Shown: one piece after another, positions 3,586 through 22,262 of the stretch
Layout of the letters: each line of letters starts with the position of its first letter
Position numbering within the stretch: position 1 is the first letter of the stretch
NCBI GenBank assembly: GCA_016699145.1
Contig: CP064962.1
Location: 600,001-632,000, forward strand
DNA from: Candidatus Saccharimonadota bacterium
GTDB lineage: Bacteria; Patescibacteriota; Gracilibacteria; UBA1369; 2-02-FULL-48-14
Direction: 5' to 3'
Length of the DNA: 32,000 bases
Position numbers and translations under genes: made by a program
Notes under the pieces: model-generated
What the model saw: the letters and a program-made list of their open reading frames with translations, nothing else
Databases searched by the model: none
What the model was told of the DNA's origin: nothing

Positions 3586-3587
3586 GG

Positions 3588-4529: not shown

Positions 4530-4647
4530 AGCTAAGAACAGCTAAGCATTTTGGCTAGCAAAAGGCAAGAACTAGGCCGGCAACGAAAACAAGCTTTTCG
4601 GCATGCTGCCCATGCTTTAAGCTAAGACTGGCCCCTTTATTTCAATC

Positions 4648-5809: not shown

Positions 5810-7090
5810 TCACAGCCGCGTCCCTTTAAAAGCTCCGCGCAATTTTCCATTTTCCACCACCACTTGTCCATGGACCATCGTGAGCACGGGCCAGCCTTTC
5901 AAGTCGAAAAATTCATAAGGAGTCCAGGCGCACTTGGAATGGATATTTTTGGCCTCAATCGTCTGCTTTAAATGCATGTCCACTAAGACAAGATCCGCGT
6001 CCATTCCAACCGCCAAAGAGCCCTTATTTTTGAGGTCAAAAATCTGAGCCGGACCTTCACACATCAGAGCCACCACCCGTTCCAAACTCAAGCGCCCTTC
6101 ATTCACGGCATTGAGCAATAAGGGCAAAGCAAATTCCACGCCCGGAACGCCCGCAGGAGCCGCCCAAAGTTCTTGCTCCTTTTCTTCTCGGGTATGAGGT
6201 GCATGATCGGTAGCAATGCAGGTCACTGTGCCATCCAAAAGAGCTCGCCATAGCGCTTCCACATCCATAAAAGTACGTAGCGGAGGGTTCATTTTTAAAA
6301 ACGCGTCTTCCATGTCTTCCATGGTGAAAAACAAATGATGCGGAGCCACTTCGCAGCTCAATTTGGGGTGTTTGTAAACGCGCAAAAGTTCCAGTTCAGC
6401 CTTGCTGCTGAGGTGAGCAATGTGCAAGCGATTTCCAATTTTTTTACGAAGTTCCAAGGCCAATTCCACCGCCTCGCGAGCACATTCCGAAGACCGCACA
6501 CGACAATAATCTGAGGGCTCTTCGCCCTTTCTTCCCATGTTTCTTTGAATGCAAGCCTCGTGCTCTGCATGCACCACCACCGGAATGTCTTTTGCCTTGG
6601 CGATTTTAAAAACCTCTTCCCAATATTCAGGTTCTTCCAAAAGCAAATCCCCCGTAGAACTGGCCATGTACAGTTTAATCGCAACCATCCCCTTCATGGC
6701 TTTGAGCGCCGCAAGGTCCTTACTGGCCCCGGCATAAAAACCATAATTCACATGGCTACGCCCTTGAATGCCCTTCGCCTTTTCATCCAAAGCTTTTTGG
6801 GTGAGCGTAGCAGGGGAAGTATTGGGCATGTCCAAAACGGTAGTCACTCCACCGAATGCTGCGGCTAAACTGCCACTCTCAAAATCTTCCTTATGAGTGC
6901 CTCCGGGGTCTCGAAAATGCACATGCGGATCAATCACTCCTGGGAGTAAAAATTTTCCTTCACAGTCCAAAATACGATCCGCCTCTTTTTCAGAAAAAGC
7001 GTCCACAATTTTCCCATCCGCCACAAACAAATCCCTGACTTTGATGTTTCGCGACGTGACCACCGATGCCGATTTAAAAATGAGTTTCAT
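5810..7090 (-). CDS. pyrC: Dihydroorotase
   Basis: 426 aa. Metal-binding motif DPHVHFRDPG and the segment ATDHAPH are present. It overlaps the pyrB stop by 4 nt. Confidence 0.92.
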   Translation of the reverse strand: MKLIFKSASVVTSRNIKVRDLFVADGKIVDAFSEKEADRILDCEGKFLLPGVIDPHVHFRDPGGTHKEDFESGSLAAAFGGVTTVLDMPNTSPATLTQKALDEKAKGIQGRSHVNYGFYAGASKDLAALKAMKGMVAIKLYMASSTGDLLLEEPEYWEEVFKIAKAKDIPVVVHAEHEACIQRNMGRKGEEPSDYCRVRSSECAREAVELALELRKKIGNRLHIAHLSSKAELELLRVYKHPKLSCEVAPHHLFFTMEDMEDAFLKMNPPLRTFMDVEALWRALLDGTVTCIATDHAPHTREEKEQELWAAPAGVPGVEFALPLLLNAVNEGRLSLERVVALMCEGPAQIFDLKNKGSLAVGMDADLVLVDMHLKQTIEAKNIHSKCAWTPYEFFDLKGWPVLTMVHGQVVVENGKLRGAFKGTRL

Positions 7091-8004
7091 AACCCTAGGA
7101 AATGAGCCAAAAGAGCCATGCGAACAGCCACGCCATTTTCAACTTGCTCAAAATATTTGGCGCGCGGATCACTGTCCACGGCAGGATCAATATGATTCAC
7201 TCGCGGCAAAGGATCGATCACAATCATGTCTTTTTTAGCCTTGGCCATGAGCGCGGGCGTCAAAACATAAATCCCATTGTACTTTTGGTACTCCGCCTCA
7301 CTTTCAAAGCGTTCCTGTTGAATGCGCGTATCCGAAAGCACATCGCAAATCGCAATAGCAGCCTCCAAATCTTCTGTTTCAGTGACTTCAAACCCTTTAG
7401 TCTTCAATTTTTCCACAAGTTCCGCCGGCATTTTCAAAGCTTCTGGCGAAACCAGGATGAATTTCACTCCTTCAAAATGCAGCAAATACTCACATTGTGA
7501 GTGCACCACTCGGCTGTTTTTTAAATCTCCAACCATGGCAATGGTGAATGTGTCTAGACGGCCCAAGGCTTTTTGAATGGTGAAAATGTCCAAAAGCCCC
7601 TGTGTGGGATGATCCCCCGCCCCATCACCTCCATTGATCACAGGCACCGAACTGCCCTTGGCCAGTTCCGCGACACTGCCCTTCGTGGGGTGCCGCATCG
7701 CAATGACGTCTGCAAAAGTGGAGATCATTTTGCCGGTGTCGTATAAACTCTCGCCTTTTTTAGCCGAGGAAGTGCTGGTCATATCCGCATTCGAAATCAC
7801 GTGACCGCCCAAACGCAGCATGGCCGTTTCAAAAGAAAAACGGGTGCGCGTAGAAGCTTCATAAAACAGCGTGGCCAAAATTTTTCCTTCCGCCAAAGGG
7901 AGGCGTTTGCGCTCTCGAACGATTGGCAAAAATTCCGCCGCTCGCGAAAGCAAAGCAAGAATCTGTTCACGGCTGAGATCCTGAGAAGAAAGAAGGTGTT
8001 GCAC
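7087..8004 (-). CDS. pyrB: Aspartate carbamoyltransferase catalytic subunit
   Basis: 305 aa. Motifs seen: STRTRFSFE, HPTQ, DPLPRV. It has a GTG start. Confidence 0.93.
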   Translation of the reverse strand: MQHLLSSQDLSREQILALLSRAAEFLPIVRERKRLPLAEGKILATLFYEASTRTRFSFETAMLRLGGHVISNADMTSTSSAKKGESLYDTGKMISTFADVIAMRHPTKGSVAELAKGSSVPVINGGDGAGDHPTQGLLDIFTIQKALGRLDTFTIAMVGDLKNSRVVHSQCEYLLHFEGVKFILVSPEALKMPAELVEKLKTKGFEVTETEDLEAAIAICDVLSDTRIQQERFESEAEYQKYNGIYVLTPALMAKAKKDMIVIDPLPRVNHIDPAVDSDPRAKYFEQVENGVAVRMALLAHFLGL

Positions 8005-8085
8005 GAGGCCTATTCTAGAGGCTGTCTAAAAAAAAGGGAAGAGCTCTCAGTACGTGCAAGTACCCGCCGGAAATTTCTCGGATTT

Positions 8086-8898
8086 TTAAAGTGGACTTCG
8101 AATCCTGTTTAAACTGGTCTGACTCACCTGGGTGTACCGTTGCGTAGTGCGAATGTTGCTGTGCCCAAGCAAAGTTTGTACATAACGCACATCCACCCCA
8201 TTCTCCAGACAGTGTGTGGCAAAACTGTGCCGCAGTGAATGAAAACTTGCCATCTTTTGAATTCCCGTTCTCCGCAACGCCTGTTTAAACACTTTTTGTG
8301 CCGTACGCACCGTGAGTTTTCCGCCTCTTTCACTTTCAAAAAGAATTCCAAACCCAGCCATCCCATTCACCGAAACTCTTAACTCACTCAACAACTTTTC
8401 CGGTAAAAGTGTGATCCGATCTTTTCCACCTTTCCCCTCCCGAACCATAATCAAGTTTCGACTCAAATCAATATCCTCAGCTCTCAAATTCACCACCTCA
8501 CTCACTCGCAAACCTGCTCCATATGCCAATGCCAATAAGAGTCGATGCTTTTTATTCAAGATTCCATCCAAAATCCTCTGAATCTCCTCACGTGAAAGCA
8601 CCACCGGCAACCGGAAGTTTCTTCGTGCGAACCGTAGTTCAATCTTTCCATGGTAACCCACCACCACCTTATAGAAAAACTTCACTGCATTCAAATAAAG
8701 ATTCACTGTTTCAGGTGCCGCCCCATTGTCCAATTTCCCAAGAAGAAAATCCTTCAAATGCTCCTCTTCAAAATCAAGGTTCCCCTTCCCTCTAAGATAT
8801 AGCTCCACACAGCGCACATAATTCTGGTTCGTTTTAGGGCTATAATGCCTGAGCCGTAACTCACGCCTCATTTTTTCCAGGCCAGTTTGCATGTCCAC
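8086..8898 (-). CDS. intI: Integron-integrase-like tyrosine recombinase (short, XerC/D-sized)
   Basis: 270 aa. The N-terminal SAM-like domain reads LRLRHYSPKTNQNYVRCVELYL. Catalytic elements seen: GLRVSEV, GKGGKDR, HSLRHSFATH, LLGHSNIRTTQRYTQV. IntI-like features include LPVVLSREEIQRIL and a C-terminal IRSPL. It is divergent from the cassette array. Confidence 0.85.
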   Translation of the reverse strand: MDMQTGLEKMRRELRLRHYSPKTNQNYVRCVELYLRGKGNLDFEEEHLKDFLLGKLDNGAAPETVNLYLNAVKFFYKVVVGYHGKIELRFARRNFRLPVVLSREEIQRILDGILNKKHRLLLALAYGAGLRVSEVVNLRAEDIDLSRNLIMVREGKGGKDRITLLPEKLLSELRVSVNGMAGFGILFESERGGKLTVRTAQKVFKQALRRTGIQKMASFHSLRHSFATHCLENGVDVRYVQTLLGHSNIRTTQRYTQVSQTSLNRIRSPL

Positions 8899-9039
8899 AT
8901 TAAGAGGTTTTTAAATTAAGTCTCTTAATAGTAACAAGTTTTTTCTGACAAATCCCTGAATTCTTTTCGGAGTTTTGCACAATGCCTTCAGCACAACTCG
9001 TTTCTATTCCAGCTTCCACAAAATTCGCATATACTCCAA

Positions 9040-9085
9040 TTACTGACTTCTATACGAAAATACTTCGTTTAGAAACGAGTTGTAC
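9040..9085 (+). other. Putative attI region with GTTGTAC core (9079-9085)
   Basis: GTTGTAC is preceded by the small palindrome CGTTT-AG-AAACG. The direct repeat TACGAAAA(T)A occurs at ~9053 and ~9083. The same GTTGTACGAAA(A)ATAAA string recurs at the start of another cassette (17164). Confidence 0.5.
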
Positions 9086-9129
9086 GAAAAATAAAAATTT
9101 GATATAATGAAGTGATTTATTATATCAAA
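9080..9129 (+). promoter_or_regulatory. Near-consensus promoter plus an 11-bp perfect inverted repeat upstream of cassette 1
   Basis: TTGTAC (9080-9085), a 17-nt spacer, then the extended -10 TGATATAAT (9100-9108). The inverted repeat TTTGATATAAT (9098-9108) / ATTATATCAAA (9119-9129) spans the -10 box. The ATG is at 9139. Confidence 0.5.
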
Positions 9130-9138
9130 TAAATAATT

Positions 9139-9387
9139 ATGGAAAATCCATCTTTGCCTAATCTTCAAGAATTAGTCCCTACTCTCAAACCAGCAAAGGG
9201 ATATGAATCTTTGTATGCAAAACAAAATCCACGCCTTACCGTCTTAGGGTGTTTTGAATGGGACGATGCATCTGTCAAACTAGCTGTGAGTAAATTAAAG
9301 GACTGGGGATATACCGCCATAACTGAACCTGTCGGAGGCATTGGAAAGGAGCAACAAGATGCAAAAGCTTTCTTTATTTTAGTATAA
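9139..9387 (+). CDS. Cassette 1: hypothetical 82-aa protein
   Basis: ORF followed 14 nt later by attC1. AT-rich. I recognise no family. Confidence 0.6.
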   Translation: MENPSLPNLQELVPTLKPAKGYESLYAKQNPRLTVLGCFEWDDASVKLAVSKLKDWGYTAITEPVGGIGKEQQDAKAFFILV

Positions 9388-9400
9388 ATTTTTCTTCATC

Positions 9401-9525
9401 GTACAACACTGCGTATGCGGCTACAGCTTGCTCCGTTCCGCCGCAAGCTTCCGCCCATATTGAGCGGATGTAGCCTGTCGGCTATTATACACCCGCGCAA
9501 CATCGCATACGCAGGAACGTTATAT
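9401..9525 (+). repeat. attC-like site 1 (125 bp)
   Basis: GTACAAC-ACTGCGTATGCG ... CGCATACGCAG-GAAC-GTTATAT. L''/L' are complementary at 11/12 positions. Nested inner stems are GGCTACA/TGTAGCC and AGCTTGC/GCAAGCT. Confidence 0.8.
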
Positions 9526-9601
9526 GAAATTTTAAAGTTTTTTAAAGAATACAATCATTATGAGTATTTACAAATCTAAACCAGCTATAGTAGGAGATAA
9601 T

Positions 9602-10145
9602 ATGAACCTCCCCGAGCTTACGCTCGGGGTTTCAGCCTAGTTCAAGCTGCGCTTGGCCCGCATCTTCTTCGCCCTGTTGTTGGATATACTTTCGAATGAC
9701 CTCCTCGTTAATCCCAACTGTGGAGGCAAAGTAACCTGCCGACCAAATACTTCTCGTCCCCAGTACACTTTTCTAAGAAACGGAAACTTTATGTTCAACT
9801 CACGAGCTGTGTTGGCTTTTATTATTCTCACCACCTCTCCCACTGCTATTTGTGGAGGTATGGAAATTAAAATATGTACATGGTCTAAATCCGTGTTTAC
9901 CTCTTTCACCACCAGTTCCGGATAGTACTTCGGAATATCCTTCATCACTTCCTGCAGAAAAGCCAACACACCTTCGTTGAATATCTTCCGACGGTATTTG
10001 GTCGGCCAAACTAAGTGATAGTCACAGATGAAAACTGCGTGTGAGCTTTTTCGTAGCTTCTTCATGCCTCCACTTTACACCACCACGAAGATGCGGGCAC
10101 CCACTACATCCCTCGGGCTTACGCCCGGGGAACTACGTCAGTTGA
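9602..10145 (-). mobile_element. IS200/IS605-family element (tnpA only)
   Basis: Subterminal hairpins CCCCGAGC-TTAC-GCTCGGGG (about 9610-9629) and CCCTCGGGC-TTAC-GCCCGGGG (about 10111-10131) flank tnpA. The left-end junction follows TCTAA on the minus strand. The right-end limit is approximate. Confidence 0.7.
9632..10065 (-). pseudogene. tnpA: IS200/IS605 Y1 (HUH) transposase TnpA, frameshifted
   Basis: The N-terminal frame carries YHLVWPTKYRRK and the HUH motif DHVHILIS. The canonical C-terminus IWSAGYFASTVGINEEVIRKYIQQQGEEDAGQAQLELG* is in another frame, with its stop at 9632-9634. The shift lies near the C4/G4 run at 9758-9761. Confidence 0.8.
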
Positions 10146-10421
10146 TTAGATGAATCTTTTATAATTGGTACTAAAGAAGAATTGCAAGAATTTGCACAAT
10201 TAATTTTAGATTTCATAAATAATCCAAAAGAAGAGAGACTTGGAGATCGGGAAGTATATTCAAGTGCAACTATGCTAACAGATTCTTTATGTGATGTATG
10301 CATCGACGGTATAGTTATGACTAAGTCAGAAAAAGATAAAGAAAATATTGTCAATGATTATCATAGAAATAATAAAATACGGGAAATAGATTGGCAAAAG
10401 CGGAAAAAACTTTAAAAAATC

Positions 10422-10563
10422 ACATAACAGTGTTTAGGCGGTTTGCAGTTTTTACCTATTTGAGGTTAAATTAAGGTACGTAAAAACCGCTCTCCCAAAT
10501 TTTGCACTGGTAGCCTTCGGCATTATACCAGCACAAAACTTCGCCCAAACACGAACGTTAGGT
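10422..10563 (+). repeat. attC-like site 2 (142 bp)
   Basis: ACATAAC-AGTGTTTAGGCG ... CGCCCAAACACG-AAC-GTTAGGT. L''/L' are complementary at 10/12 positions. Confidence 0.8.
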
Positions 10564-10964
10564 GTAATGCTTTGAGAATTAATTCAAATGACTATGGAAA
10601 CAATAACTGAAAAATTGAAGAAAAAAATTTTGGAAAAAGGTGATGAAGAAATATCACTCGAAGTGAATCTCGATACCCCTTCCCTACTCGTTCTTAACGA
10701 GGCTCCATACTATTCCTTAAAGTTAGGTGATTCTTACATTCATCTAGAGTGTTTCTGGCGTGCAGTTGTAAATTCAAAAATTGTTTTTACTTCAGAAGAT
10801 GATAAACAGATGTTCGGATTGGACAAACCGTTTGATCTTATCGAAGCATTCCAAAAATTTTTTTCTTCAAAACGTGTGTCGTTGATCAAAATAAAGCATC
10901 CCATCGCTGATCTTCAAATTATCTTCGAGGACGGAAGTTATATCGAAGCTTTTGCTAGGAGCTG

Positions 10965-11411
10965 TTAACATAAGACTTTGAGTAAAAGTGCCACAAGGCA
11001 GAGGGAGATAAAGGAGGCATACATCAGGTCTAATTTGTCATAGCGAGTTGAAATTCTTCTGTGATTTTTCATTCGGTGAAATAGGCGTTCAATCTCGTTG
11101 CGGTAGGCATAAATGTTCTTGTTGTATTCCCACGGAAATTTCATTTTTGCCTTTGGAGGAACGACTGGAGTTATGCCTTTTTCTTTGCACAGCTCCAGAA
11201 CTTTGTAGCATGAATAACCTTTGTCCATAGCCAAATGATCTACTGTTTTTGGAAACGAATAATCTCTCAAAATTTGTTTTCCAACTTTCACATCGCTCAC
11301 TTCACCACCTGTTAAAACAAAGTGCATCCCATGATCTGGATCTCCAGCAATCATGTGAATTTTTGTAGTGTACCCACCTCTACTTCGGCCTAACGCTTGT
11401 GGCCCCTTTTT
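10965..11411 (-). CDS. IS5-family transposase, DDE frame (orfB), reached by a +1-type shift at A6G4
   Basis: The frame is open from 11411 (KKGPQALGRSRGGYTTKIHMIAGD...MDKGYS...YRNEIERLFHRMKNHRRISTRYDK). The A6G4 run (complement of 11403-11412) lies in the overlap. Removing one A would fuse both frames. Confidence 0.75.
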   Translation of the reverse strand, partial: KKGPQALGRSRGGYTTKIHMIAGDPDHGMHFVLTGGEVSDVKVGKQILRDYSFPKTVDHLAMDKGYSCYKVLELCKEKGITPVVPPKAKMKFPWEYNKNIYAYRNEIERLFHRMKNHRRISTRYDKLDLMYASFISLCLVALLLKVLC

Positions 11412-11742
11412 TCATGGCTCCCGCTGCACTGTGGTGCGCTCTATTTGTTGTACTGTCCAGGAAAGCTATTCGCACTTGAAGTACATCTGCTACTTCAAGT
11501 GCTCTAAGCATTTGTCCAAAAAGTCCAGATTCGCTCCACCGTTTGTATCTTGTATAAATCGTGTGCCAGTCATTCTCTTTTTCTCTGTAATCGTAGGGCA
11601 TTTGTCTCCATGCGCACCCTGTTTTAAGTACATAACAAATGGCATCCATGCAACGTTTCAGTGGAATCTTTTCAGGCTTTCTGGGCTTTGGAAAATAAGG
11701 CTGGATCAGTTTGAACTGTTCATCCGTTAGCATCTGGTACAT
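11380..11742 (-). CDS. IS5-family transposase, N-terminal frame (orfA)
   Basis: LTDEQFKLIQPYFP...ICYVLKTGCAWRQMP...WHTIYTRYKRWSESG...FLDSTTNRAHHSAAGAMKKG matches the IS4/IS5 N-terminal (DUF4096-like) pattern. Confidence 0.8.
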   Translation of the reverse strand: MYQMLTDEQFKLIQPYFPKPRKPEKIPLKRCMDAICYVLKTGCAWRQMPYDYREKENDWHTIYTRYKRWSESGLFGQMLRALEVADVLQVRIAFLDSTTNRAHHSAAGAMKKGATSVRPK

Positions 11743-11899
11743 GGCGTTAGGGTTAGAGTAACTTCACTCTACACCACTCCTCTATTTATGTTAACAGCTC
11801 CTAGTTCAAGTGGATATGAAACTTGGTCAATATCAGGAGAAATTATTTGTCTAGGTGAAGGAAAGCTAGTAATTTCTTAAGACGCACTCAAAGCACAAC

Positions 11900-12076
11900 A
11901 CCTAACAGCGTGTATGCGGTTCAAAAATGTTCCGAATATTAATTTTAAAGGATTAAACATTTTTTCACCCAAATGGCGCAACTCAATGACGGCTCCCCTG
12001 GGTAGACACCTCTGTTTAGCTAAGGTAGTATGCACTGGGGACAGCGCGCCACTTCGCACACACGCGAACGTTAGTG
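11900..12076 (+). repeat. attC-like site 3 (177 bp)
   Basis: ACCTAAC-AGCGTGTATGCG ... CGCACACACGCG-AAC-GTTAGTG. L''/L' are complementary at 10/12 positions. Confidence 0.75.
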
Positions 12077-12111
12077 GCAACCCTATGACGACCATAAAAA
12101 CTAAATAGACA

Positions 12112-12630
12112 ATGAAAGAAATTTTAAAATATACCTTTTGTTTGACTTTGATATTTTTGATTCAGACATCTTGTAATAACAATACGACTCAGGACAGCGG
12201 CAATACTGACAAGGTTAGTAAAGTAAGCCTCATTGAGAAGCCAATCGGAGAAAGCGGTTATGTGTTATCAATTCCGGCTGACTATTCCATTACAACAAGT
12301 GACGGGCCAGACTTCTCGGTTTATTATTTTTCATCCACGGACACGACCATTAAGAACAAATTATCAGGAGGACTTTATTTCGGAAACCATCCAAGTGAAT
12401 TTGAAGCCGACAATGCAAACTGCAAAACAGAAACATTAACAGGAAAAATCCTTGACAATATGCAAGCATGGACTGTTTACAATTGTCAGAGTGACTTTTC
12501 AATTCAAACAATTGTTGACAACAATAAAGGAGAAGGTTGGAATCAGAAAGTTCATGCATTTGGACATGCAAAAAGTAATGACGATTTACAAACAATTTTA
12601 GAAATCTACTCGACATTAAGAAAGAAATGA
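12112..12630 (+). CDS. Cassette 4: secreted protein or possible lipoprotein, 172 aa
   Basis: N-terminal signal segment MKEILKYTFCLTLIFLIQTSC. It is followed by attC4. Confidence 0.65.
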   Translation: MKEILKYTFCLTLIFLIQTSCNNNTTQDSGNTDKVSKVSLIEKPIGESGYVLSIPADYSITTSDGPDFSVYYFSSTDTTIKNKLSGGLYFGNHPSEFEADNANCKTETLTGKILDNMQAWTVYNCQSDFSIQTIVDNNKGEGWNQKVHAFGHAKSNDDLQTILEIYSTLRKK

Positions 12631-12658
12631 CAATAGTATATCGATATAGAAGGGCAGC

Positions 12659-12790
12659 CACTAACACGGGTTTGGCAAAAGTGGCGGTTCAGTGCTCCGC
12701 AAACTCATTTGTGGTTAATCAAAGTTAGGTTCTCCACATCAACATTGGTGGTAAAAATCACCACCTTCGCCAAGCCCGGAACAGTTATGT
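12659..12790 (+). repeat. attC-like site 4 (132 bp)
   Basis: CACTAAC-ACGGGTTTGGCA ... CGCCAAGCCCGG-AACA-GTTATGT. The arms are complementary (GCCAAaCCCG versus GCCAAgCCCG). There is one extra A before the GTT. Confidence 0.7.
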
Positions 12791-12839
12791 GCAATTTTAT
12801 TCGAGTGCAGAATTATCATTAATAAAATCCAGTTGAACC

Positions 12840-13109
12840 ATGGATAAAAACGAAATTCAAAACGATTTCAAAAGCAATTTTCTCCAATTGCGAAAAATAA
12901 TTAATGCATGGAACTTAATTCCTGGATCAGGTAAAGAAGAATTCGATTCGCTCAATCAAAAAATATTGTCAAATTTGTACCGTGGAGCTGATGCTGACAA
13001 AATTAAAAGAGTAATCGAGAGCGAACTGTGCGTAAACTTTGGCTTTTTTATTGATGAATTTGATTCAGAAAAAATGTCGCTTGAAATTATTGAGTGGTGG
13101 AACGAATAA
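12840..13109 (+). CDS. Cassette 5: hypothetical 89-aa protein
   Basis: ORF followed 12 nt later by the 5' half of attC5. Confidence 0.6.
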   Translation: MDKNEIQNDFKSNFLQLRKIINAWNLIPGSGKEEFDSLNQKILSNLYRGADADKIKRVIESELCVNFGFFIDEFDSEKMSLEIIEWWNE

Positions 13110-13149
13110 TGAAAAACTGCACCTAACAGCGCGTTAGCGGCTCGTCCGA

Positions 13150-13178
13150 TTGACTTATTTTTTATTCTTCTTTAATCT
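13150..13178 (+). promoter_or_regulatory. Candidate hicBA promoter
   Basis: TTGACT (13150-13155), a 17-nt spacer, then TAATCT (13173-13178). The -10 box is weak. Confidence 0.3.
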
Positions 13179-13200
13179 GTAAATAGGATAAAAATTGATT

Positions 13201-13419
13201 ATGCGTAAAATAGACTTCAAATCAGTGATTTGGAAAGAAGGTGCGTATTATATCGCCCAATGTTTGGAGGTAGATGTGTCCAGTTTTGGCAAAACAAAAA
13301 AAGAAGCCCTTATTCATCTTCAAGACGCTTTGTCGTTGTATTACGAAGATGTGCCCTTGCCCAAAAAGGCAGAAGTGAATAACCCTATGATCGCATCTAT
13401 AGAACTTCAGTATGCCTAG
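13201..13419 (+). CDS. hicB: HicB-family antitoxin (short form, N-terminal domain only)
   Basis: 72 aa from ATG 13201. The segment VIWKEGAYYIAQCLEVDVSSFGKTKKEALIHLQDALSLYYED fits the HicB/UPF0150 fold pattern. It overlaps hicA by 8 nt. Confidence 0.7.
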   Translation: MRKIDFKSVIWKEGAYYIAQCLEVDVSSFGKTKKEALIHLQDALSLYYEDVPLPKKAEVNNPMIASIELQYA

Positions 13420-13591
13420 GCCCTATAAAGTAAGTCTGATTGTGAAGATTTTGAAAGATATGGGCTTTTTTTTTGTGTCTCAATCGGGTTCTCACGCAAA
13501 ATACCGTAAACCTGGAAATCCAACCCTAACAACCATAGTACCAATACATGAAAAAGAAGTCCGTTACGGCACCTTTCGGTCTATTTTATGA
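13412..13591 (+). CDS. hicA: HicA-family mRNA-interferase toxin (59 aa, not listed in the ORF track)
   Basis: My translation is MPRPYKVSLIVKILKDMGFFFVSQSGSHAKYRKPGNPTLTTIVPIHEKEVRYGTFRSIL*. It carries the HicA signature GSH..Y ... VP.H ... GT..SIL. Confidence 0.75.
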   Translation: MPRPYKVSLIVKILKDMGFFFVSQSGSHAKYRKPGNPTLTTIVPIHEKEVRYGTFRSIL

Positions 13592-13755
13592 CAGTCAAAT
13601 TTAAAAGAAAGTGACTTCAATAAACATAAAAAATAAGCCACTCGAAACTCGCTCAAATTGGCTAGGTGTCCACTTCGTGATATTTTACACCTGTGCAACT
13701 TCGCGCCAACGCGCGGACGTTAAGCGAAATATTTTTTGCCTCTAATATCAAAACT

Positions 13756-14229
13756 GTGAACGAAAATTCAACATCATTAACATTTTATCCAAGCAAGTGG
13801 AAAACTTTTCTTCTTTTTTTTGTATCACTTTTTTTCACTCTGGGAGGCACTTGGATGATAAGTGATAGAGAGCCTATGGGATGGTTCGTATCAATCTTTT
13901 TTGGCATCGGATGCATAGTATTCATCGCAATTTTGCTACCTCATTCTTCTTACTTACGCATTTCCGAAAAAGGATTTGAAATACGTTCATTATTTCGCGG
14001 CGGGTTTACCAATTGGAATGAAGTAGACCAATTTGAATCTGGATACATTGGACTAAATAAAATGGTGGTCTTCAACTATAGCCCAGGGCATAAAAAATAT
14101 GAAACAGGTAAAAAAATAGCAAAAACGATAACAGGTGTTGAAGGGGCATTGCCAGATACCTATGGAAAATCGGCAGAAGAATTAGCAAAATTGCTTAATG
14201 AATGGAAAGAAAAGTTTTCAAGAAAATAG
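13756..14229 (+). CDS. Cassette 6: two-TM membrane protein with a PH-like cytosolic domain (STM3941-like, tentative)
   Basis: The sequence reads ...LTFYPSKWKTFLLFFVSLFFTLGG...WFVSIFFGIGCIVFIAILLP...YLRISEKGFEIRSLF...WNEVDQFE. I chose GTG 13756 because it is the first start inside the cassette. The track start at 13693 lies within attC5. Confidence 0.6.
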   Translation: MNENSTSLTFYPSKWKTFLLFFVSLFFTLGGTWMISDREPMGWFVSIFFGIGCIVFIAILLPHSSYLRISEKGFEIRSLFRGGFTNWNEVDQFESGYIGLNKMVVFNYSPGHKKYETGKKIAKTITGVEGALPDTYGKSAEELAKLLNEWKEKFSRK

Positions 14230-14243
14230 GCAAAGAATACATC

Positions 14244-14364
14244 GTACAACAAGGACTATGCGGTTCATTTCTTCGCTTCGCTCAGTCATTCCCCACATTT
14301 GCCAGTAGTGCGCTTTCAGCGTATTTTACCACTGGCAAATGTCGCATAGTCATGGACGTTAGCT
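14244..14364 (+). repeat. attC-like site 6 (121 bp)
   Basis: GTACAAC-AAGGACTATGCG ... CGCATAGTCATG-GAC-GTTAGCT. The inner stem is CATTTGCCAGT / ACTGGCAAATG. Confidence 0.75.
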
Positions 14365-14447
14365 GAAATACATTTTTCTCTTTTGGCCTACGGCCAACTT
14401 TTTGAGAGGAAAGACATTTGATTTCCTCTATTGACAGGGGTGGTACT

Positions 14448-15382
14448 GTTTTGTAATCAATAGCTTTGCATCACTTCGTTAGGAGTTAGCATGTGAAGAC
14501 CCATGTGAGGACGTTCAAAATTGTAATAGTGAAGGAAGTCAGGGATTGCTTTTTTGTAAGCCTCTAAAGTCTTTGGGACTCGGGAGAGGCATTCCTCCTG
14601 GATGGTTCTGTTGAATCTCTCCACATAGGCATTGTCTGTGGGTGTTCGTACTCTTGAATGTCTGTGCTGAATTTCATTAGCTACAAGCGTTTTAGTGAGC
14701 CACTTGGAAAACTCACTTCCATGGTCTGTCTGGATCATTTTAAGTTCAAAGGGCATGTCTTCTTGTGAGTGCTGAATAAACTCCCAACTTGCGTGGGTTC
14801 CAATCTTCATCACCGGCATAGCAGAGGCCCATCTACTGCACACGTCCAGCATAGTGTATACATAAAGTCTGTCATAATAAGGCCCATCCACAATCGTGTC
14901 TATTTGCACCAATATGCCTGGTTTTTCAGGCCGCGGTCTTTCCTCATACTGGTGCCACTTCTTCCACTTGCTGTATTTGGTCATCTCGTTCCTTTTGAGT
15001 GTTCTCTTCACACTGGAAAGACTCACTTCGTAGCCATCTCTTTCCAGAAAATAGTGAATCACTTCTGCACACCGCTGGTACTTGAGTCTGTACTCTATGA
15101 CTTTCTGCACTGTCTCTGCAGAAAGCTCACTGGGGTGCGAATGGGGACGTGAGCTTTCTGTGGGAATGGTGTGGCCATAGTTATTGCCTCTGAGCTTTTC
15201 CACCCACCGCACAATGCTGCTTTGGTTAAAACCTGTGTGTCTGGCCACTTCGCGTGTGCTCCAGCCTTTTTCCAGAACTAACTTTGCTGCCTCCATTCGC
15301 ACCCGAGGCAGATGGGGATTTTGTGTGTATGCCATGTCCATATCTTTGCACAGGGGTGATGCAAAGCTATTGAACCATTACA
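14448..15382 (-). mobile_element. IS481-like insertion sequence A (935 bp) with a 6-bp target duplication
   Basis: The direct repeat GGTACT occurs at 14442-14447 and 15383-15388. The terminal inverted repeats share a 17-bp perfect core, CAATAGCTTTGCATCAC (14458-14474 / 15356-15372). Confidence 0.85.
14457..15341 (-). CDS. IS481/IS3-type DDE (rve) transposase, intact
   Basis: 294 aa. It has an HTH segment (WSTREVARHTGFNQSSIVRWV) and a DDE triad context (LVQIDT, QTDHGSEF, YVERFNRT). Confidence 0.88.
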   Translation of the reverse strand: MDMAYTQNPHLPRVRMEAAKLVLEKGWSTREVARHTGFNQSSIVRWVEKLRGNNYGHTIPTESSRPHSHPSELSAETVQKVIEYRLKYQRCAEVIHYFLERDGYEVSLSSVKRTLKRNEMTKYSKWKKWHQYEERPRPEKPGILVQIDTIVDGPYYDRLYVYTMLDVCSRWASAMPVMKIGTHASWEFIQHSQEDMPFELKMIQTDHGSEFSKWLTKTLVANEIQHRHSRVRTPTDNAYVERFNRTIQEECLSRVPKTLEAYKKAIPDFLHYYNFERPHMGLHMLTPNEVMQSY

Positions 15383-15426
15383 GGTACTTGCCAAACCTTA
15401 ATTAATCTGCTAATTTAAACAACATT

Positions 15427-15777
15427 ATGAAATGGCTTACAAGAAAAAACGGAATTATATTATGTGCAATTGGGATAGTAATCTTTCTACTTAACTTTCT
15501 AACTTATAGTTTATGGGAAATTGACATTGATATTCTTGGTGCAATGATTTTTTTTCTTGGCTTAGTGATTACAATAGCTTGCGGACCTTCAATGAAAAAT
15601 TCCTCTAAATTGTTAACAAGAAAAAATGGTGTAAGGTTATGCATAATTACCACGGTAATAACAGCATTATTTGCATATTCACCCATCTCATATCTTAACG
15701 GATATTTTACTGGTTTCTTGAATTTAACAGTGTTTGTTTTAGGTGTAATTATTATAACTGTAAGATGGAAATATTAA
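15427..15777 (+). CDS. Cassette 7: 4-TM membrane protein with an internal duplication
   Basis: 116 aa. The two halves both begin (W/L)LTRKNG(I/V).LC and are each followed by two hydrophobic segments. Confidence 0.6.
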   Translation: MKWLTRKNGIILCAIGIVIFLLNFLTYSLWEIDIDILGAMIFFLGLVITIACGPSMKNSSKLLTRKNGVRLCIITTVITALFAYSPISYLNGYFTGFLNLTVFVLGVIIITVRWKY

Positions 15778-15838
15778 AGTTACCGACTCTTAAATATTGT
15801 AGCTTCGCAATTATTGATAAAGGTGAAAATTCTACATC

Positions 15839-15855
15839 GCCTAACACTGCGTATG
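15839..15855 (+). repeat. attC-like site 7, 5' half only
   Basis: GCCTAAC-ACTGCGTATG has the same L'' as attC1 and then diverges. No cognate CATACGCAG-GAAC-GTT occurs downstream. Confidence 0.5.
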
Positions 15856-16007
15856 AATGAATGTTTCCATATTAAAAAAGGTTATTGATAAATAACCCCT
15901 TCTGAGGCTTCCAACGCCATGTTACACCACGTACACGGTTTAACCTTTCGAGGTCCCACCAGCATAGCTAGTGGTTTATGAATTGCTAATTATACCGCCA
16001 AAAAAAA

Positions 16008-17160
16008 CCTCCGGTTCAGGCACGTACGTACGTAGTTTCACGAATTTCAAGTACAGCTCAGGGGAAAAGGAAGAGGGAGTAGAGTAGAGATACTTTACTT
16101 CTTCACCCCAACTCCCTCATGGAACAATATAACATGACGAAAGGCATTCGTGGACTGAGAAGATTACTTCGGCAGTTTAACGAAGCTACTTTAAAGCCCT
16201 GGCAGAGAGACGTACTTAGAGAAAGAATCCTTATTTTGGATTGGTACGACCATAATGGAAAGAATAAAGCCAAGACTGCCAGGGCTTTTGAAACTTCTAG
16301 AAGCCACGTACAAAAGCTGGTGAAGGCCAGAAAGGAAGAAGGACTGGGTGGTCTTATTCCGAAAATAACAGGACCCAATAACAAACGTGGATTTAATCTC
16401 ACCAGTGAAGAGAAACAAGAGATTGAACGCTATGCAAGGATGTTTCCAGATTGGAGCCACAAGAAGCTTCACATGTTTCTTCACCAGCACAGCATTTCCA
16501 CCTTGTACCGCTATTTGGCAGCAAAAGGATTACTGGTTCGTAATCGCTGCCCCGGGTTTCACAAGAAACCAAAACCTAGGTCTGCTTGGAAAGTCCAAAG
16601 AAAAACTCCCCAAGGACTACCAAATCTTAAAACCTGGAGACTTGGTAGTCCTAGATTCCATCGTTGAGTTTGTGGACAGCGCCTTCAACAAACTGTACTT
16701 CATTACCTGTGTGGATGTGGCCACCAGGATAGGTTTTGCACTCGTAACCAAGCACCACAGTTCCAAGGCGGCCAAAGCTTTGCTGGAAAAGATGGAAGAA
16801 GTGCTCCAGACCAAGATTAAAGCTGTTTTAACAGACAACGGCAGTGAGTTCCTGGCGTACTTCCATAAAGCCTGCCAGCAGCAAGGGATTGAGCACTTCT
16901 TCACTCGCCCCAGAACACCAAAAGATAATGCGATTTGTGAGCGATTCAACCTTACTTTGCAACAACACCTCTACTGGAGAGTGGACTTAACCAGTCCCAT
17001 TTACAAGATTAATGAGGTGCTCGCGGATTGGCTCGTGGAGTATAATTGCCTTCGTCCACATGAATCTCTCAATATGAGACCTCCAGTTGCTCACTACTTT
17101 CATCTATTCTACTCCCCTCGCCCCATCCCCGAGGTGTACTTGAAACTATGGAACCGGACA
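16008..17160 (+). mobile_element. IS481-like insertion sequence B (limits approximate)
   Basis: It has ~50-bp imperfect inverted repeats: left ...CCGGTTC..TAGTTTCA..TTTCAAGTACAGCTCAGGGG..GGGAGTAGAGTAGA, and right complement TGTCCGGTTCCATAGTTTCAAGTACACCTCGGGG..GGGAGTAGAATAGA. I found no clear target duplication. The right end is 3 nt from GTTGTAC (17164-17170). Confidence 0.6.
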
Positions 17161-17178
17161 GTACGTTGTACGAAATAA
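16119..17178 (+). pseudogene. IS481-type DDE transposase split into two frames at an A5 run
   Basis: Frame 1 (16119-16667) carries the HTH N-terminus. Frame 2 carries the DDE domain (VVLDSI, TDNGSEF, ICERFN) and ends at 17178. The frames overlap around the A5 run at 16601-16605. Removing one A gives ...VQRKLPKDYQILKPGD.... Confidence 0.75.
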
Positions 17179-17226
17179 ATAAGCCTGCTAAGCTCCTTCA
17201 CGAGCTTAAATTTTAATCATAAAACA

Positions 17227-17787
17227 ATGAACAAAGCGCTATCAGTGTTAACAATTATTGGGATTAGCACCTCCCTCTTCGCTTGCACAAACATCACCAC
17301 CGAACAACAAAAAGCAATCACTATTGATAATTTCGGCGAAGAAATAATTTTCACACCTTCTGCGGAAGACTGGTGTGGAGAAGATTGCATCATTTATCCA
17401 GAAAATGGGAATATGTACATTCGTGTCCCAGAAAGTGGAAGTGACACATTCTACCCAGAAGGAACTGACAGAAATCTAGAAGATGCGAGCGAAGAGGTCG
17501 GTGAAATAATCAAAGATTACGAAGAGAACTTGGATTCTACACAAAACAATGAAAAACTACATCCTGGCTGCAAATTAACAGTGGAAGAAGCAAAGTTAAA
17601 ATCAGAAGAGTATGCCATTTCAAACAATCAAAACTGGGGGGCGATAGAATCTGTTAGCTATTATGAGCCCCGACAAGAATATCATATAGTCTATCCCACA
17701 CCTGAAGGACAAAGACTGCTTTTGGGAGAAAACGGTACAATAGTAAACTGTATCACTGGAGAAACAAGGATAATGCCCTTGGAATAA
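17227..17787 (+). CDS. Cassette 8: acidic lipoprotein, 186 aa
   Basis: Signal peptide and lipobox MNKALSVLTIIGISTSLFAC. The cassette begins with TTGTACGAAATAAATAA, like cassette 1. Confidence 0.65.
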   Translation: MNKALSVLTIIGISTSLFACTNITTEQQKAITIDNFGEEIIFTPSAEDWCGEDCIIYPENGNMYIRVPESGSDTFYPEGTDRNLEDASEEVGEIIKDYEENLDSTQNNEKLHPGCKLTVEEAKLKSEEYAISNNQNWGAIESVSYYEPRQEYHIVYPTPEGQRLLLGENGTIVNCITGETRIMPLE

Positions 17788-17794
17788 TTGGCAT

Positions 17795-18046
17795 TCCTAA
17801 CCAAGCATAGTTAAGACTAGAGATTTGTTGGAAAGAAAGGTTAAGGAAAGCTGGTCCCACAAAATTTACGCGCTGCGGTGCCGTAGCTCCTCGCGTGCTC
17901 GGGTTCTCCGCGGCATAAGATCGCGGATGACGCGCACACGCGTCACCGTGAGCCGCTACGACCACATTTTTTGACGCAAATCGGCTTTACAGATTGAATA
18001 AATGACACAGGCGTCAAAAAACGTCAGCGTAAAATCCACGTTAAGC
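17795..18046 (+). repeat. Atypical cassette junction: R''-like TCCTAAC, a GC-rich long hairpin, an 11-bp stem, and a terminal GTTAAGC
   Basis: TCCTAAC is at 17795-17801 and GTTAAGG at 17840-17846. ATTTACGCGCTG (~17865) pairs with CAGCGTAAAAT (~18025). An imperfect ~90-nt GC-rich hairpin spans 17874-17965. TTTTTTGACGC (17967-17977) pairs with GCGTCAAAAAA (18011-18021). The R' box GTTAAGC is at 18040-18046. Confidence 0.35.
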
Positions 18047-18076
18047 GAAATATTTTTTGCCTCTAATATCAAAACT

Positions 18077-18549
18077 GTGAACGAAAATTCAACATCATTA
18101 ACATTTTATCCAAGCAAGTGGAAAACTTTTCTTCTTTTTTTTGTATCACTTTTTTTCACTCTGGGAGGCACTTGGATGATAAGTGATAGAGAGCCTATGG
18201 GATGGTTCGTATCAATCTTTTTTGGCATCGGATGCATAGTATTCATCGCAATTTTGCTACCTCATTCTTCTTACTTACGCATTTCCGAAAAAGGATTTGA
18301 AATACGTTCATTATTTCGCGGCGGGTTTACCAATTGGAATGAAGTAGACCAATTTGAATCTGGATACATTGGACTAAATAAAATGGTGGTCTTCAACTAT
18401 AGCCCAGGGCATAAAAAATATGAAACAGGTAAAAAATAGCAAAAACGATAACAGGTGTTGAAGGGGCATTGCCAGATACCTATGGAAAATCGGCAGAAGA
18501 ATTAGCAAAATTGCTTAATGAATGGAAAGAAAAGTTTTCAAGAAAATAG
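18077..18549 (+). pseudogene. Cassette 9: duplicate of cassette 6 with a frameshift (A7 to A6)
   Basis: By eye the sequence is identical to 13719-14229 starting from GTTAAGC (18040), apart from one missing A at 18431-18436 (versus 14110-16). That change gives a premature TAG at 18437-18439. Confidence 0.8.
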
Positions 18550-18563
18550 GCAAAAAATACATC

Positions 18564-18695
18564 GTACAACAATGTACAACAATGACTATGCGGTTCATTT
18601 CTTCGCTTCGCTCAGTCATTCACCCACATTTGCCAGTGGTGCGCTTTCAGCGTATTTTGCCACTGGCAAACATCGCATAGTCACGAACGTTACAT
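18564..18695 (+). repeat. attC-like site 9 (paralog of attC6)
   Basis: GTACAAC-AATG[TACAACAATG]ACTATGCG ... CGCATAGTCACG-AAC-GTTACAT. It has a 10-bp tandem duplication of the R'' region and scattered substitutions relative to attC6. Confidence 0.75.
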
Positions 18696-18725
18696 GTAAT
18701 TTAATTTTTTTTAAGGCTTTGCTAG

Positions 18726-19220
18726 ATGAATATTATTGAAGAGATTAATAAACTGACAGTAATTGGGAGAACCTGCGTATCAGTAATATGCTTTGAAAGA
18801 TTTTGTAACAAATTTAATATATCACATCCTGATATAAAAAATTTCATTCAACATATTTGGAAAGTTACGCAAGTAAATTCAAATACTTGGGTAGAATGGG
18901 AAAGTGGGTTTTATCACCTAACAATTACTGGTCAAGGTGATCCTTATAATGAAGATTTAATTAATTCAATACCAAAAAATTTACTAGAAGATTTTGATAA
19001 ATTTTCTCAATATGTTTTTGAAACAACCGCTTCAACTTGGTATACTAGTGATATTACTGGATCTTCTGAATTTTTAAGGAAAGTATTAGAATTATGTATT
19101 AAATATGATGTTCCATTACCAAAATTAGATTTTTATACAAATCCACCTAATAATATTCATAATGGATGGGGAAAATCTTTAAGTGATGAAGAAGTTAAGA
19201 ATTGGCAATCCACTATTTAA
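18726..19220 (+). CDS. Cassette 10: hypothetical 164-aa protein
   Basis: AT-rich ORF. Its stop codon (TTTAA context) abuts the left end of an IS200-like remnant. No attC follows. Confidence 0.6.
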   Translation: MNIIEEINKLTVIGRTCVSVICFERFCNKFNISHPDIKNFIQHIWKVTQVNSNTWVEWESGFYHLTITGQGDPYNEDLINSIPKNLLEDFDKFSQYVFETTASTWYTSDITGSSEFLRKVLELCIKYDVPLPKLDFYTNPPNNIHNGWGKSLSDEEVKNWQSTI

Positions 19221-19446
19221 TCGGAAGAATTCCCCGCAGCTTGCTGCGCGGGTGTAGGATGGAGGCATGAGCAACCATATCTACAAAAGCCATAACAAGA
19301 GTCTGTTGCTATATCACTTGGTTTGTCCTGTGAAATGTAGGAGGAAGATTTTAACGGAGGAAGTGGAGTACAGTTTAAAGAAGATCTGCGAAGAGATAGG
19401 AGAGCGGTTTGAGTTGCAATTTGTGGAAATAGGTAGTGATGAAAAC
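19221..19446 (+). mobile_element. IS200/IS605-like remnant (left end plus a 5' tnpA fragment)
   Basis: The hairpin CCCCGCAGC-TTGC-TGCGCGGG and the string TGTAG..GGAGGCATG resemble the left end of the 9602-10145 element. The TnpA fragment MSNHIYKSHNKSLLLYHLVCPVKCRRKIL...EIGSDEN stops just before the HUH motif. Confidence 0.7.
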
Positions 19447-19627
19447 CTTGATGCCTTTCAAGTCGAGTTTCATAACCATCAACAACTTTAAAAGCAGGTT
19501 CTCTTTCCATTAAAGCAGCAATGCGCTGCACAAAAAAAGTGACATGCTTACGTACCTCTTTTATAGAGTCCTCCATTTTAGCAATAGCTCTCTCTATTGG
19601 TGATTCAGAAGGTGTATATGAGGACAT
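19447..19627 (-). pseudogene. 5' fragment (~60 codons) of an unknown gene, truncated at the IS200-like remnant
   Basis: MSSYTPSESPIERAIAKMEDSIKEVRKHVTFFVQRIAALMEREPAFKVVDGYE. The rest of the 136-aa track ORF is antisense to the tnpA fragment. Confidence 0.35.
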
Positions 19628-19639
19628 ACTTCTTGTAAG

Positions 19640-20318
19640 TTACAGATCGTTGGATTCAAATTCCTTTCGAAGTGATTCAAATTGATCAACTGAATCTCCT
19701 TGAGGAGCATAATCCCACCCGGTAGCGGCATGTATTCCTTCATGGACCAAGGTGCCTACTTGCGCACAAAGATTCACTTCATCTCTAACACCAACAAAAA
19801 AAAGCGGGCGATAGGGAAAAACTTGCTGCATCATCAAAGCGTATAGTCTCTGCTGTAATAACACCGCCAAGAGGATCCATAGAAGAATGTTGAGCACAAA
19901 AAACATGAACATCCAAGGTAGCTTTCAAGGAAGCAGAAATATCTTCCTCAGACAGAATGGGCCCAGCAGTTTGAATGAGTCGTTCTTTCAATGGCTCTAA
20001 ATTGGAAGCTATGTAGTCTCTAACATCGGTTACCTGCGCCTTTTGACTTTCATCACAAGGATGAAATTGGCTCAGAAGCTCTTCTCTATATGCCATCAAA
20101 CCTTCGGTCAATTCTTGAGCTTTTTCAAGTAATGCCTTTGCCTCCTGTCGCGTCTCATGTGCTTGCCACGTGTAAGTGGCTAAAGCTATAGAGAGACCAC
20201 CAACGAGTAATGAACCAAGATTTGAAAAAGGTGGCCTTAAAAGCACACTCGGAGCTTTCTTTTCATTTGCTGGAGTGTCAGCTCCTGCTTGTGAATTTCC
20301 ATTCTCCAGTAAAGACAT
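19640..20318 (-). pseudogene. Membrane-anchored HExxH protein, split at an A8/T8 run
   Basis: ORF 19785-20318 carries a TM segment (LGSLLVGGLSIALATYTW). ORF 19640-19912 carries LVHEGIHAA. Removing one T from the run (complement of 19796-19803) gives ...SPAFFVGVRDEVNLCAQVGTLVHEGIH..., a ~225-aa product. Confidence 0.55.
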
Positions 20319-21522: not shown

Positions 21523-21555
21523 ACTGAACCCGTTGTGACACTTAGCCCAACGCCC

Positions 21556-22221: not shown

Positions 22222-22262
22222 GCGCTCTGGTTTTTTTTCGAGATAGCCTCTAGAATCCCCGC

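Follow-up and report, generated by a model that had tools for sequence, protein, structure and literature searches.

The stretch analysed here, 32,000 nucleotides of contig CP064962.1 (hereafter the window, in whose numbering all positions are given), carries between pyrB and carA a row of small genes separated by structured repeats and headed by a recombinase gene. The recombinase, a presumed integrase of 270 aa (IntI/XerA-like; Pfam Phage_integrase, PF00589, at 4e-40, plus SAM_4), is encoded on the minus strand at 8086–8898 and faces about 10 small plus-strand open reading frames (ORFs), as the initial annotation had described; an attI region at 8945–9085 lies between. Both flanking genes were confirmed by Pfam search; the AT-richness ascribed to the cassettes is borne out by a GC content of 0.32–0.45 over 9000–20000, against 0.45–0.54 in most flanking 500-base bins; and the guess that the host belongs to the candidate phyla radiation (CPR) agrees with a 100% identity of the recombinase to a Candidatus Peregrinibacteria protein (NCBI, 1.34-Mb contig). 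We conclude that the region is very probably a chromosomal integron of a Candidatus Peregrinibacteria genome, worked by the adjacent recombinase on folded attC sites. This reading, which the initial annotation had proposed in outline, is supported by the anatomy of the sites, their covariation, the cassette boundaries, and a duplicated cassette.

The attC sites can be found by scanning for AAC, one base, and a 10-nt stem, followed at a distance by the reverse complement of that stem, 4–5 bases, and GTT. The scan returns seven complete sites in the window, all on the plus strand: attC1 (9401–9525), attC2 (10422–10563), attC3 (11900–12076), attC4 (12659–12790), attC5 (13121–13725), attC6 (14244–14364), and attC9 (18574–18695). 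In shuffled windows, the chance expectation is 0.06 matches for the strict pattern and up to 0.7 for a relaxed one. When the bottom strands are folded as single-stranded DNA, R' pairs with R'' and L' with L'' (z −2.7 to −4.8), and 0–3 of 200 shuffles fold as well as the real sequence. A consensus alignment of 15 sites (the window supplied six, and L054, a related contig of 1.3 Mb, the other nine) has compensatory changes in 24 of its 32 consensus pairs. The covariance model built from these aligned sites (R1) recovers sequence on which it was not trained, that is, the 3' part of attC5 (13561–13725) and six more sites of L054, four of them at 87–94 bits.

The structure is conserved while the sequence varies. 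Among 82 independent metagenomic sites, 94.9% of pair cells are paired, as compared with 70.1% in shuffles and 30–42% with slid partners, double-change cells number 579 against 164 in shuffles, and both-side changes occur at 26 of the 32 pairs, the pairing counts being somewhat inflated because this alignment (A6) was fitted to R1. The seven sites for which both attC halves and covarying arms had been claimed are all present where they had been placed, and the two irregular junctions are also as they had been described. Junction 7 retains only its 5' half, with R'' GCCTAAC at 15839–15845 and ACTGCGTATG, and is disrupted beyond that. Junction 8, at about 17856–18046, is divergent and pairs weakly (R'' CCACAAA, intact R' GTTAAGC, ATTTTACGC / GCGTAAAT pairing, z −2.5), and R1 does not detect it. 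An Rfam scan of the window gave 0 matches at the gathering threshold, since attC is a DNA element and lies outside Rfam.

Read along the top strand, a site opens with R'' (RYYYAAC) and an A; the L'' arm of 11 nt comes next, and GGTTC leads from it to hairpin B, which is variable. After TCACCCAAAT there is hairpin A, a long one that encloses a further hairpin and a TATTTTAC loop, and the site closes with (A/C)TTCG, the L' arm (again 11 nt), GRAC, and R' (GTTAnnn). In the folded bottom strand, the R helix spans 5 bp and the L helix 11 bp, the latter free of bulges; a bulge of 3 nt (TTY) sits on the AAC arm directly 3' of AAC-G, and in a three-way junction the conserved stretches TTGGGTGA and GAACC are unpaired. 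Paired R and L boxes together with extrahelical bases had been anticipated for the bottom strands; the boxes do pair, but the L helix of the consensus structure is free of bulges on the arm that faces the AAC triplet. Sites from Moranbacteria have one extra base, which is likewise on the AAC arm.

The variable hairpin of an attC may hold a gene-sized insert. In the window, attC5 holds hicBA in this way; elsewhere, locus L005 (~45–520) has an ORF of 105 aa in such a hairpin, and L083 has five gene-containing sites (187–1227, 1930–2429, 3280–3840, 4547–5085, and 7754–8667); the one inspected, at 3280–3840, has its insert bordered by a 25-bp hairpin stem. The long-range scan for such sites is very noisy, and matches were accepted only with zero mismatches and both flanking signatures. 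Some cassettes seem to be little beyond an attC with a gene in its loop.

The attI region (8945–9085, plus strand) comprises CTGACAAA (8945–8952), CAACTCGTTTC (8994–9004), GAAACGAGTT (9072–9081), and the crossover box GTTGTAC (9079–9085). Five related loci share the blocks CTGACAAA, CAACTCGTTTC, and TAGAAACGA followed by GTTRT, beyond which they diverge completely. The reverse complement of GTTGTAC is the R'' of attC1, and the box together with 15 further nucleotides is complementary to the R'' end of that site (repeat I6). Inverted copies of CAACTCGTTTC about 70 nt apart form a 15-bp long-range hairpin (z −4.4; 8990–9087 in the window, and also 9716–9813 in L054), R1 gives a weak match at 8991–9085, and a Moranbacteria attI (L061, 9891–9978) has the same layout with different arm sequences. 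On these grounds, attI looks like a fixed attC-like site. A terminator scan of attI gave nothing above chance. That attI might be a dif site seemed unlikely, given that the locus lies close to the origin in relatives.

A gene encoding ~137 aa, without a Pfam match and on the recombinase strand, separates attI from the recombinase in several close relatives (L001 ~170–580, L002 113–631, L055 171–584, L056 94–507, L145 197–613, and L143 3352–3762), and a second such gene often follows the recombinase. The window has neither.

The association of sites and recombinase extends well beyond this genome. Eighty metagenomic loci encoding homologues were fetched with a CPR recombinase alignment, and R1 sites were counted at E ≤ 0.01. 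Seventy-eight of the 82 sites found lie upstream of the recombinase, on the strand that makes the cassettes divergent from the gene, and 0 are upstream on the opposite strand; downstream, the plus strand has 0 and the minus strand 4, the latter being co-oriented with the recombinase. Where 2 kb or more of upstream sequence is available, 26 of 34 loci have a site, and where 500 nt or more is available, 36 of 58 do; in 24 of these 36 loci, the nearest site is 490–1000 nt away from the start codon. The longest ORF between two sites is co-oriented in 42 of 49 cases, and cassettes measure 726 bp at the median. Contigs with sites adjacent to a homologue are labelled Moranbacteria (L061, six sites), Saccharibacteria (L005), and Gracilibacteria/Peribacteria (L054), and about 560 kb of non-CPR loci contained one strong R1 match (L016).

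One might suppose that the array owes its origin to a canonical IntI that acted in trans or has since disappeared, and that the adjoining recombinase is unrelated to it, which would make the locus a cluster of attC sites lacking integron-integrases (CALIN). The rule used by IntegronFinder (PF00589 plus an IntI-specific profile; PMC9668308) would not call the protein an IntI, so that the locus would be labelled in exactly this way. We nevertheless hold such an origin to be very improbable, given that the linkage just described is orientation specific, with zero upstream sites on the wrong strand, that a conserved attI lies directly beside the recombinase gene, and that the geometry of the sites is unlike that of canonical attC.

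A few of the metagenomic loci call for separate mention. The non-CPR match (L016, 760–846; 39.7 bits) is on a Spirochaetales-binned contig, where the recombinase downstream of it is short and takes a basal position in the tree; either the bin is contaminated or the system reaches beyond CPR. The downstream co-oriented sites come from three loci (L141 2753–2844 and 7848–7934, L131 13394–13491, and L135 11927–12082) and resemble the inverted-integrase arrangement of some classical integrons. Seven homologous contigs (L001–L005, L057, and L144) end less than 1 kb from the start of the recombinase gene; arrays therefore seem to break short-read assemblies systematically and to stay hidden. In L058 (900–9533 of a 1.49-Mb contig), 15–16 small co-oriented genes whose content resembles that of cassettes (DUF1801, glyoxalase, AHSA1, DUF4256, and others), mostly with gaps of a few to ~40 nt, stand beside a 59%-identical recombinase; this locus was not counted as an array because it has no R1 site.

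Wobble pairs can be used to ask which strand is folded. Over the paired positions of the 82 independent sites, the bottom strand has 203 G.T pairs against 24 A.C pairs, which would be G.T on the top strand; without two consensus wobble positions, the counts are 58 and 24 (p = 2e-4). Canonical attC sites have a bottom-strand G:T bias likewise, at 1.24 versus 0.39 per site (PMC5027507).

Cassette boundaries can be read from the ends of neighbouring sites. In 54 adjacent pairs from 13 arrays, R' of one site (plus 10 nt) and R'' of the next match at 8.9 of 14 variable positions, as compared with 5.6 for the two ends of a single site and 5.2 for other pairs. In cassettes 1, 2, and 3 of the window, the first 20–25 nt are complementary to the sequence ending in the R'' of the cassette's own attC (repeats I6, I2, and I14). 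Cassettes 6 and 9 are copies of one unit, the identity of which starts at AC|GTTAAGC and stops at GTTA, with unrelated attCs upstream. From these cassette-end matches and from the limits of the duplicated cassette, we infer that the crossover falls in the conserved AAC/GTT of R', as in classical integrons. Recombination of the top strand with boundaries at R'' was also considered, as the bulge opposes the top-strand AAC. We rejected it because the duplicated cassette carries its downstream attC and not the upstream one, because attI diverges after its R' GTT, and because the wobble bias favours the bottom strand.

The complementary stretches in cassettes 1 to 3 (9079–9100/9386–9407, 9519–9543/10404–10428, and 10557–10576/11887–11906) are far longer than the 7-nt box, so that circularisation of a cassette would give its site an R helix much longer than the one it has within the array. 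Comparison of the duplicated cassettes (13719–14364 and 18040–18695) shows 0 substitutions and one 1-nt deletion in the 540-nt gene part, and 8 substitutions (7 of them transitions), one indel, and a 10-nt tandem duplication (GTACAACAAT) in the 120-nt attC part. The attC appears to mutate much faster than its gene, by changes that mostly keep the bottom-strand pairing via G.T.

Intergenic, hairpin-forming, and recurrent sequences may also be structured elements that have nothing to do with recombination, such as repetitive extragenic palindromes, terminators, or structured RNAs, and the conserved internal motifs of the present repeats are unusual for attC. We regard this as extremely improbable. 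The sites are not the 3' structures of mRNAs, because the strand which the wobble bias favours is antisense to the cassette genes, and Rfam yielded no matches; in addition, the ends of adjacent sites covary across the intervening gene, the duplicated unit ends exactly at the GTT boxes, and the linkage to the recombinase gene is strict. It is also very improbable that the cassettes are Xer modules of the double-stranded kind found on Acinetobacter plasmids (pdif modules), in which recombination takes place at short duplex core sites and no hairpin is folded. The recombinase is Xer-like, and the duplex R' box contains the palindrome TAAC|GTTA. Covariation over 32 pairs, also in stems more than 100 nt apart, and a strand-specific G.T bias would be unexpected for duplex core sites, however, and there is no evident 28-bp site with two arms and a 6–8 bp spacer.

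If the array is an integron operating on folded sites, the next question is what its recombinase is. The best NCBIfam model is that of the integron integrases, TIGR02249, which scores 208.5 bits in two stretches, and all Xer models score below their cut-offs (XerA_Arch 197 with a cut-off of 220, XerC 167 with 335, and XerD 158 with 330). In alignment A4 with four true IntIs (from Proteobacteria and an anammox bacterium), 42 residues (31 + 11) are missing between REGKGxKDR...LPE and HSLRHSFATH, and the sequence match to VchIntIA is split, with query residues 175–199 set against chain residues 179–246. The AlphaFold model (pLDDT 89) has a short linker at residues 178–196 in place of the extra domain. 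The active-site motifs AGLRVSE, GKGxKDR, HSLRHSFATH, LLGH, and Y255 are invariant or nearly so, and the C-terminal SPL is conserved. VchIntIA (2a3v; E 1e-15) is the best fold match in the PDB, followed by archaeal XerA, and the best sequence match there is the XerA of P. abyssi. A rough neighbour-joining tree separates a clade of CPR proteins from a clade of IntIs (each in 50/50 bootstraps); the CPR group is 37% identical to IntIs and 29% to E. coli XerC/D.

Several points weigh against the integron reading, besides the inflation of the pairing counts mentioned above. The stretch missing from the recombinase is the IntI-specific domain (around patch III), which is the domain gripping the extrahelical bases. 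This domain has been treated as necessary for attC recombination (PMC9668308). As it is absent, the protein fails the test that defines an IntI: its TIGR02249 score is below the cut-off of 265 and thus outside the operational definition of the family. Homologues of about 270 aa are very common in CPR, with 7112 matches below E 1e-20 and 55–60% identity across named lineages, and a protein so widespread and conserved could be a housekeeping Xer. As regards a cassette promoter (Pc), a sigma-70 scan of the plus strand of 8800–9200 gave nothing above chance, CPR promoters lying outside the coverage of that scan. The array is ridden with insertion sequences (IS) and may therefore no longer be active in the present genome.

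The breadth and conservation of the family also count toward a rather unlikely rival, namely that the recombinase is the housekeeping chromosome-dimer resolvase of CPR, a single XerA-like enzyme which also serves the array. The affinity to XerA in the XerA_Arch score and in the P. abyssi match would fit such an enzyme, as would the absence of a second recombinase from the window. Xer enzymes do recombine folded single-stranded DNA, as in the attP of CTX phage. In several relatives, however, the gene and its attI are near rnpA/yidC or dnaA and hence close to the origin, whereas dif would be expected at the terminus; GC skew shows no switch inside the 32-kb window; the scores lie under the XerA, XerC, and XerD cut-offs; and the best fold match is an integron integrase. 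This rival would make the locus a Xer-driven integron, not one with a dedicated IntI, and is compatible with the reading that we prefer.

For the integron reading itself, a working scheme can be put forward. The recombinase would most likely be the catalyst, inserting circular cassettes at attI (G|TTGTAC, 9079) and excising them between attC sites. Its substrate would be the bottom strand of attC folded as a single-stranded hairpin, with the crossover within the AAC/GTT of the R' box. In keeping with an enzyme that lacks the IntI-specific domain, the sites offer another asymmetry, on which the choice of strand may depend: the R helix, the TTY bulge by AAC, the bulge-free L helix, and the motifs of the three-way junction.

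The cassettes of the array all lie on the plus strand, and the cassette ORFs are without Pfam matches, HicA excepted. Cassette 1 (9080–9519) holds an 82-aa ORF (9139–9387) and attC1, the latter supported by pattern scan, fold, and R1. Cassette 2 (9520–10557) contains an IS200-like element (~9600–10135; tnpA on the minus strand at 9637–10065, Y1_Tnp 2.5e-23; hairpins at 9610 and 10110), an ORF at 10182–10415, and attC2 (fold z −4.8); its start and end are 88% complementary over 25 nt (I2). An attempt to rebuild its ORF across the IS200-like insertion failed, with no in-frame join. In cassette 3 (10558–12070, attC3 supported by its fold), the ORF is split by an IS5-like element at 10959–11800 with perfect 19-nt inverted repeats (I7), a CTAG target duplication, and a frameshifted minus-strand transposase (10965–11742; DUF4096 + DDE_Tnp_1); excising 10959–11804 restores a 148-aa ORF.

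Cassette 4 (12071–12784) has a 172-aa ORF (12112–12630) and attC4, a site with a variant stem found by pattern scan, fold, and R1; its R'', CACTAAC, is exactly reverse-complementary to GTTAGTG, the R' before it. Cassette 5 (12785–13719) has an ORF at 12840–13109, and its attC5, in which L'' and L' pair across 600 nt, carries as hairpin cargo a hicB-like gene (13195–13419) and hicA (13412–13591; HicA_toxin 2.9e-14), the insert being flanked by the stem 13147–13175 / 13616–13644 (I1). Cassette 6 (13720–14358) encodes a membrane protein in an ORF ending at 14229, carries attC6 (supported by pattern scan, fold, and R1), and is the unit duplicated as cassette 9. Homologues of this protein occur in three contexts, namely another array (L148), a non-CPR locus of ordinary make-up (L150), and a row of phage-like genes (L149), which hint weakly at cassettes moving between genomes.

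From cassette 7 onward, the array is less regular. Cassette 7 (14359–15856) includes an IS with an rve transposase (14457–15373; rve/rve_3) and perfect 18-nt inverted repeats (I15), an ORF at 15427–15777, and the 5' half of attC7 (L'' to 15856), which aligns with attC1 at 85% (direct-repeat family D6). The 3' half of attC7 was not found, the nearest candidate being a weak R1 match at 15919–16038 (E 0.18). A second rve-type IS (16045–17180, plus strand) has a frameshifted transposase (16119–17178) with helix-turn-helix and rve domains in two overlapping frames, as well as imperfect inverted repeats (16045–16089 / 17103–17146), and probably destroyed that half-site. The next unit (17227–18046) consists of a 186-aa ORF (17227–17787) and the divergent attC8. 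Cassette 9 (18041–18689), the copy of cassette 6, is frame-shifted by the 1-nt deletion, and its attC9 is preceded by the 10-nt tandem duplication at 18564–18573.

The last cassette (18690–19450) has a 164-aa ORF (18726–19220) and lacks an attC of its own, and R1 gives no match after 18695. An N-terminal IS200 remnant (~19226–19450; Y1_Tnp 6e-8 for 19267–19491, plus strand) replaces the end of the array. The IS200 fragment at 19267–19491 overlaps the 3' part of a minus-strand ORF (19217–19627), which is probably truncated. With the IS200-like and IS5-like elements, the two rve-type elements, and this remnant, there are five IS elements or fragments. The platform is intact, but the array is eroding, as the truncated attC7, the divergent attC8, and the frameshifted cassette 9 attest. 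One cassette protein bears the locus tag IPG41_03405.

To the left of the region lie pyrE, pyrK, pyrD, pyrC, and pyrB (the last at 7087–8004), and to the right two unidentified minus-strand ORFs, carA (20437–21522), and several proteins with SLH domains, of which the right flank holds four. carA is not directly followed by carB; the next genes encode an SLH-domain protein and then a 764-aa protein with an RNase_T exonuclease domain (20437–24557 in all). When the window is compared with its close relatives (L143, L144, L145, L054, L055, and L057), the neighbour of the recombinase gene varies: pyrB in the window, and elsewhere a PemK toxin pair (86% identity), priA (77%), comEC, or a radical SAM gene. 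It seems that either the whole platform has moved or these genomes are heavily rearranged.

Beyond the single locus, we lean, with modest confidence, toward the view that CPR bacteria possess an ancient integron class of their own, consisting of a Xer-sized recombinase without the IntI-specific domain, a distinct family of folded attC sites, and an attC-like attI. If this is true, the extra domain is not required for cassette recombination at hairpin sites, and the class would either preserve the ancestral condition of integrons or have solved the same problem independently. It would also be a main route of gene gain in reduced CPR genomes that standard integron finders miss. The view that the extra domain and the extrahelical bases enable single-stranded recombination is built into detection software, and a widespread exception would put it to a direct test; integrons across a large part of bacterial diversity have probably been scored as absent or as orphan attC clusters. 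CPR genomes are about 1 Mb in size and host-dependent, and a cassette store of 10 kb (~1% of the genome) may be important for adaptation. For those who design structure-specific recombination tools, a simpler enzyme would be on offer. Searches of the open literature turned up neither a report on CPR integrons nor one on integrases that lack the extra domain; subscription journals lay outside this coverage, and a prior description is possible.

When the locus is compared with known systems, the classical chromosomal integrons (e.g., the Vibrio cholerae superintegron with VchIntIA and its repeats, VCR) come first. Shared features include a divergent integrase with an adjacent attI, co-oriented and promoterless-looking cassettes of ~0.3–2 kb, attC ends of the form RYYYAAC ... 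GTTRRRY with covarying inner arms, a crossover assigned to the R' GTT, and the bottom-strand G:T bias (PMC5027507). A toxin–antitoxin module and mostly orphan genes are common to both as well, and VchIntIA has the closest solved fold. There are differences as well. The present integrase lacks the 42 residues of the IntI-specific domain; the 3-nt bulge of its sites is on the AAC arm, and no extrahelical bases stand opposite (PMC5027507); the unpaired central spacer is reduced to 4 nt versus 1 nt; in place of a free variable loop, the inner part forms a conserved three-way junction that bears conserved sequence motifs; genes can sit inside the attC hairpin; and attI can fold as an attC-like hairpin, whereas classical attI are duplex sites.

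Archaeal integrons (Ghaly et al. 2022, PMC9668308) are similar in that they were found outside the usual bacterial phyla, in metagenome-assembled genomes, and in arrays that fragment assemblies, but archaeal IntIs are reported to carry the IntI-specific domain and archaeal attCs to share the bacterial structure, neither of which is true here. With XerA and XerCD, the present enzyme has in common its compact build of ~270 aa without the extra domain, XerA being the best sequence match in the PDB. The integration of folded single-stranded CTX phage DNA by XerCD is a precedent for a Xer enzyme acting on a folded substrate. Xer systems, in contrast, have one dif site per replicon and no arrays, and the present protein scores below all Xer family cut-offs. 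CALIN, the IntegronFinder category (PMC9024848), is the label that standard software would probably give, yet the present arrays are consistently joined by a specific recombinase family and an attI; the definition (at least two attC sites and no integron integrase nearby) applies only if one adopts the software's notion of an IntI, as an IntI-like recombinase is linked to the sites. The system has the architecture of an integron and would work like one, and it stands outside the IntI family in the strict sense because both the IntI-specific domain (PMC9668308) and the extrahelical bases on the opposite arm (PMC5027507) are absent.

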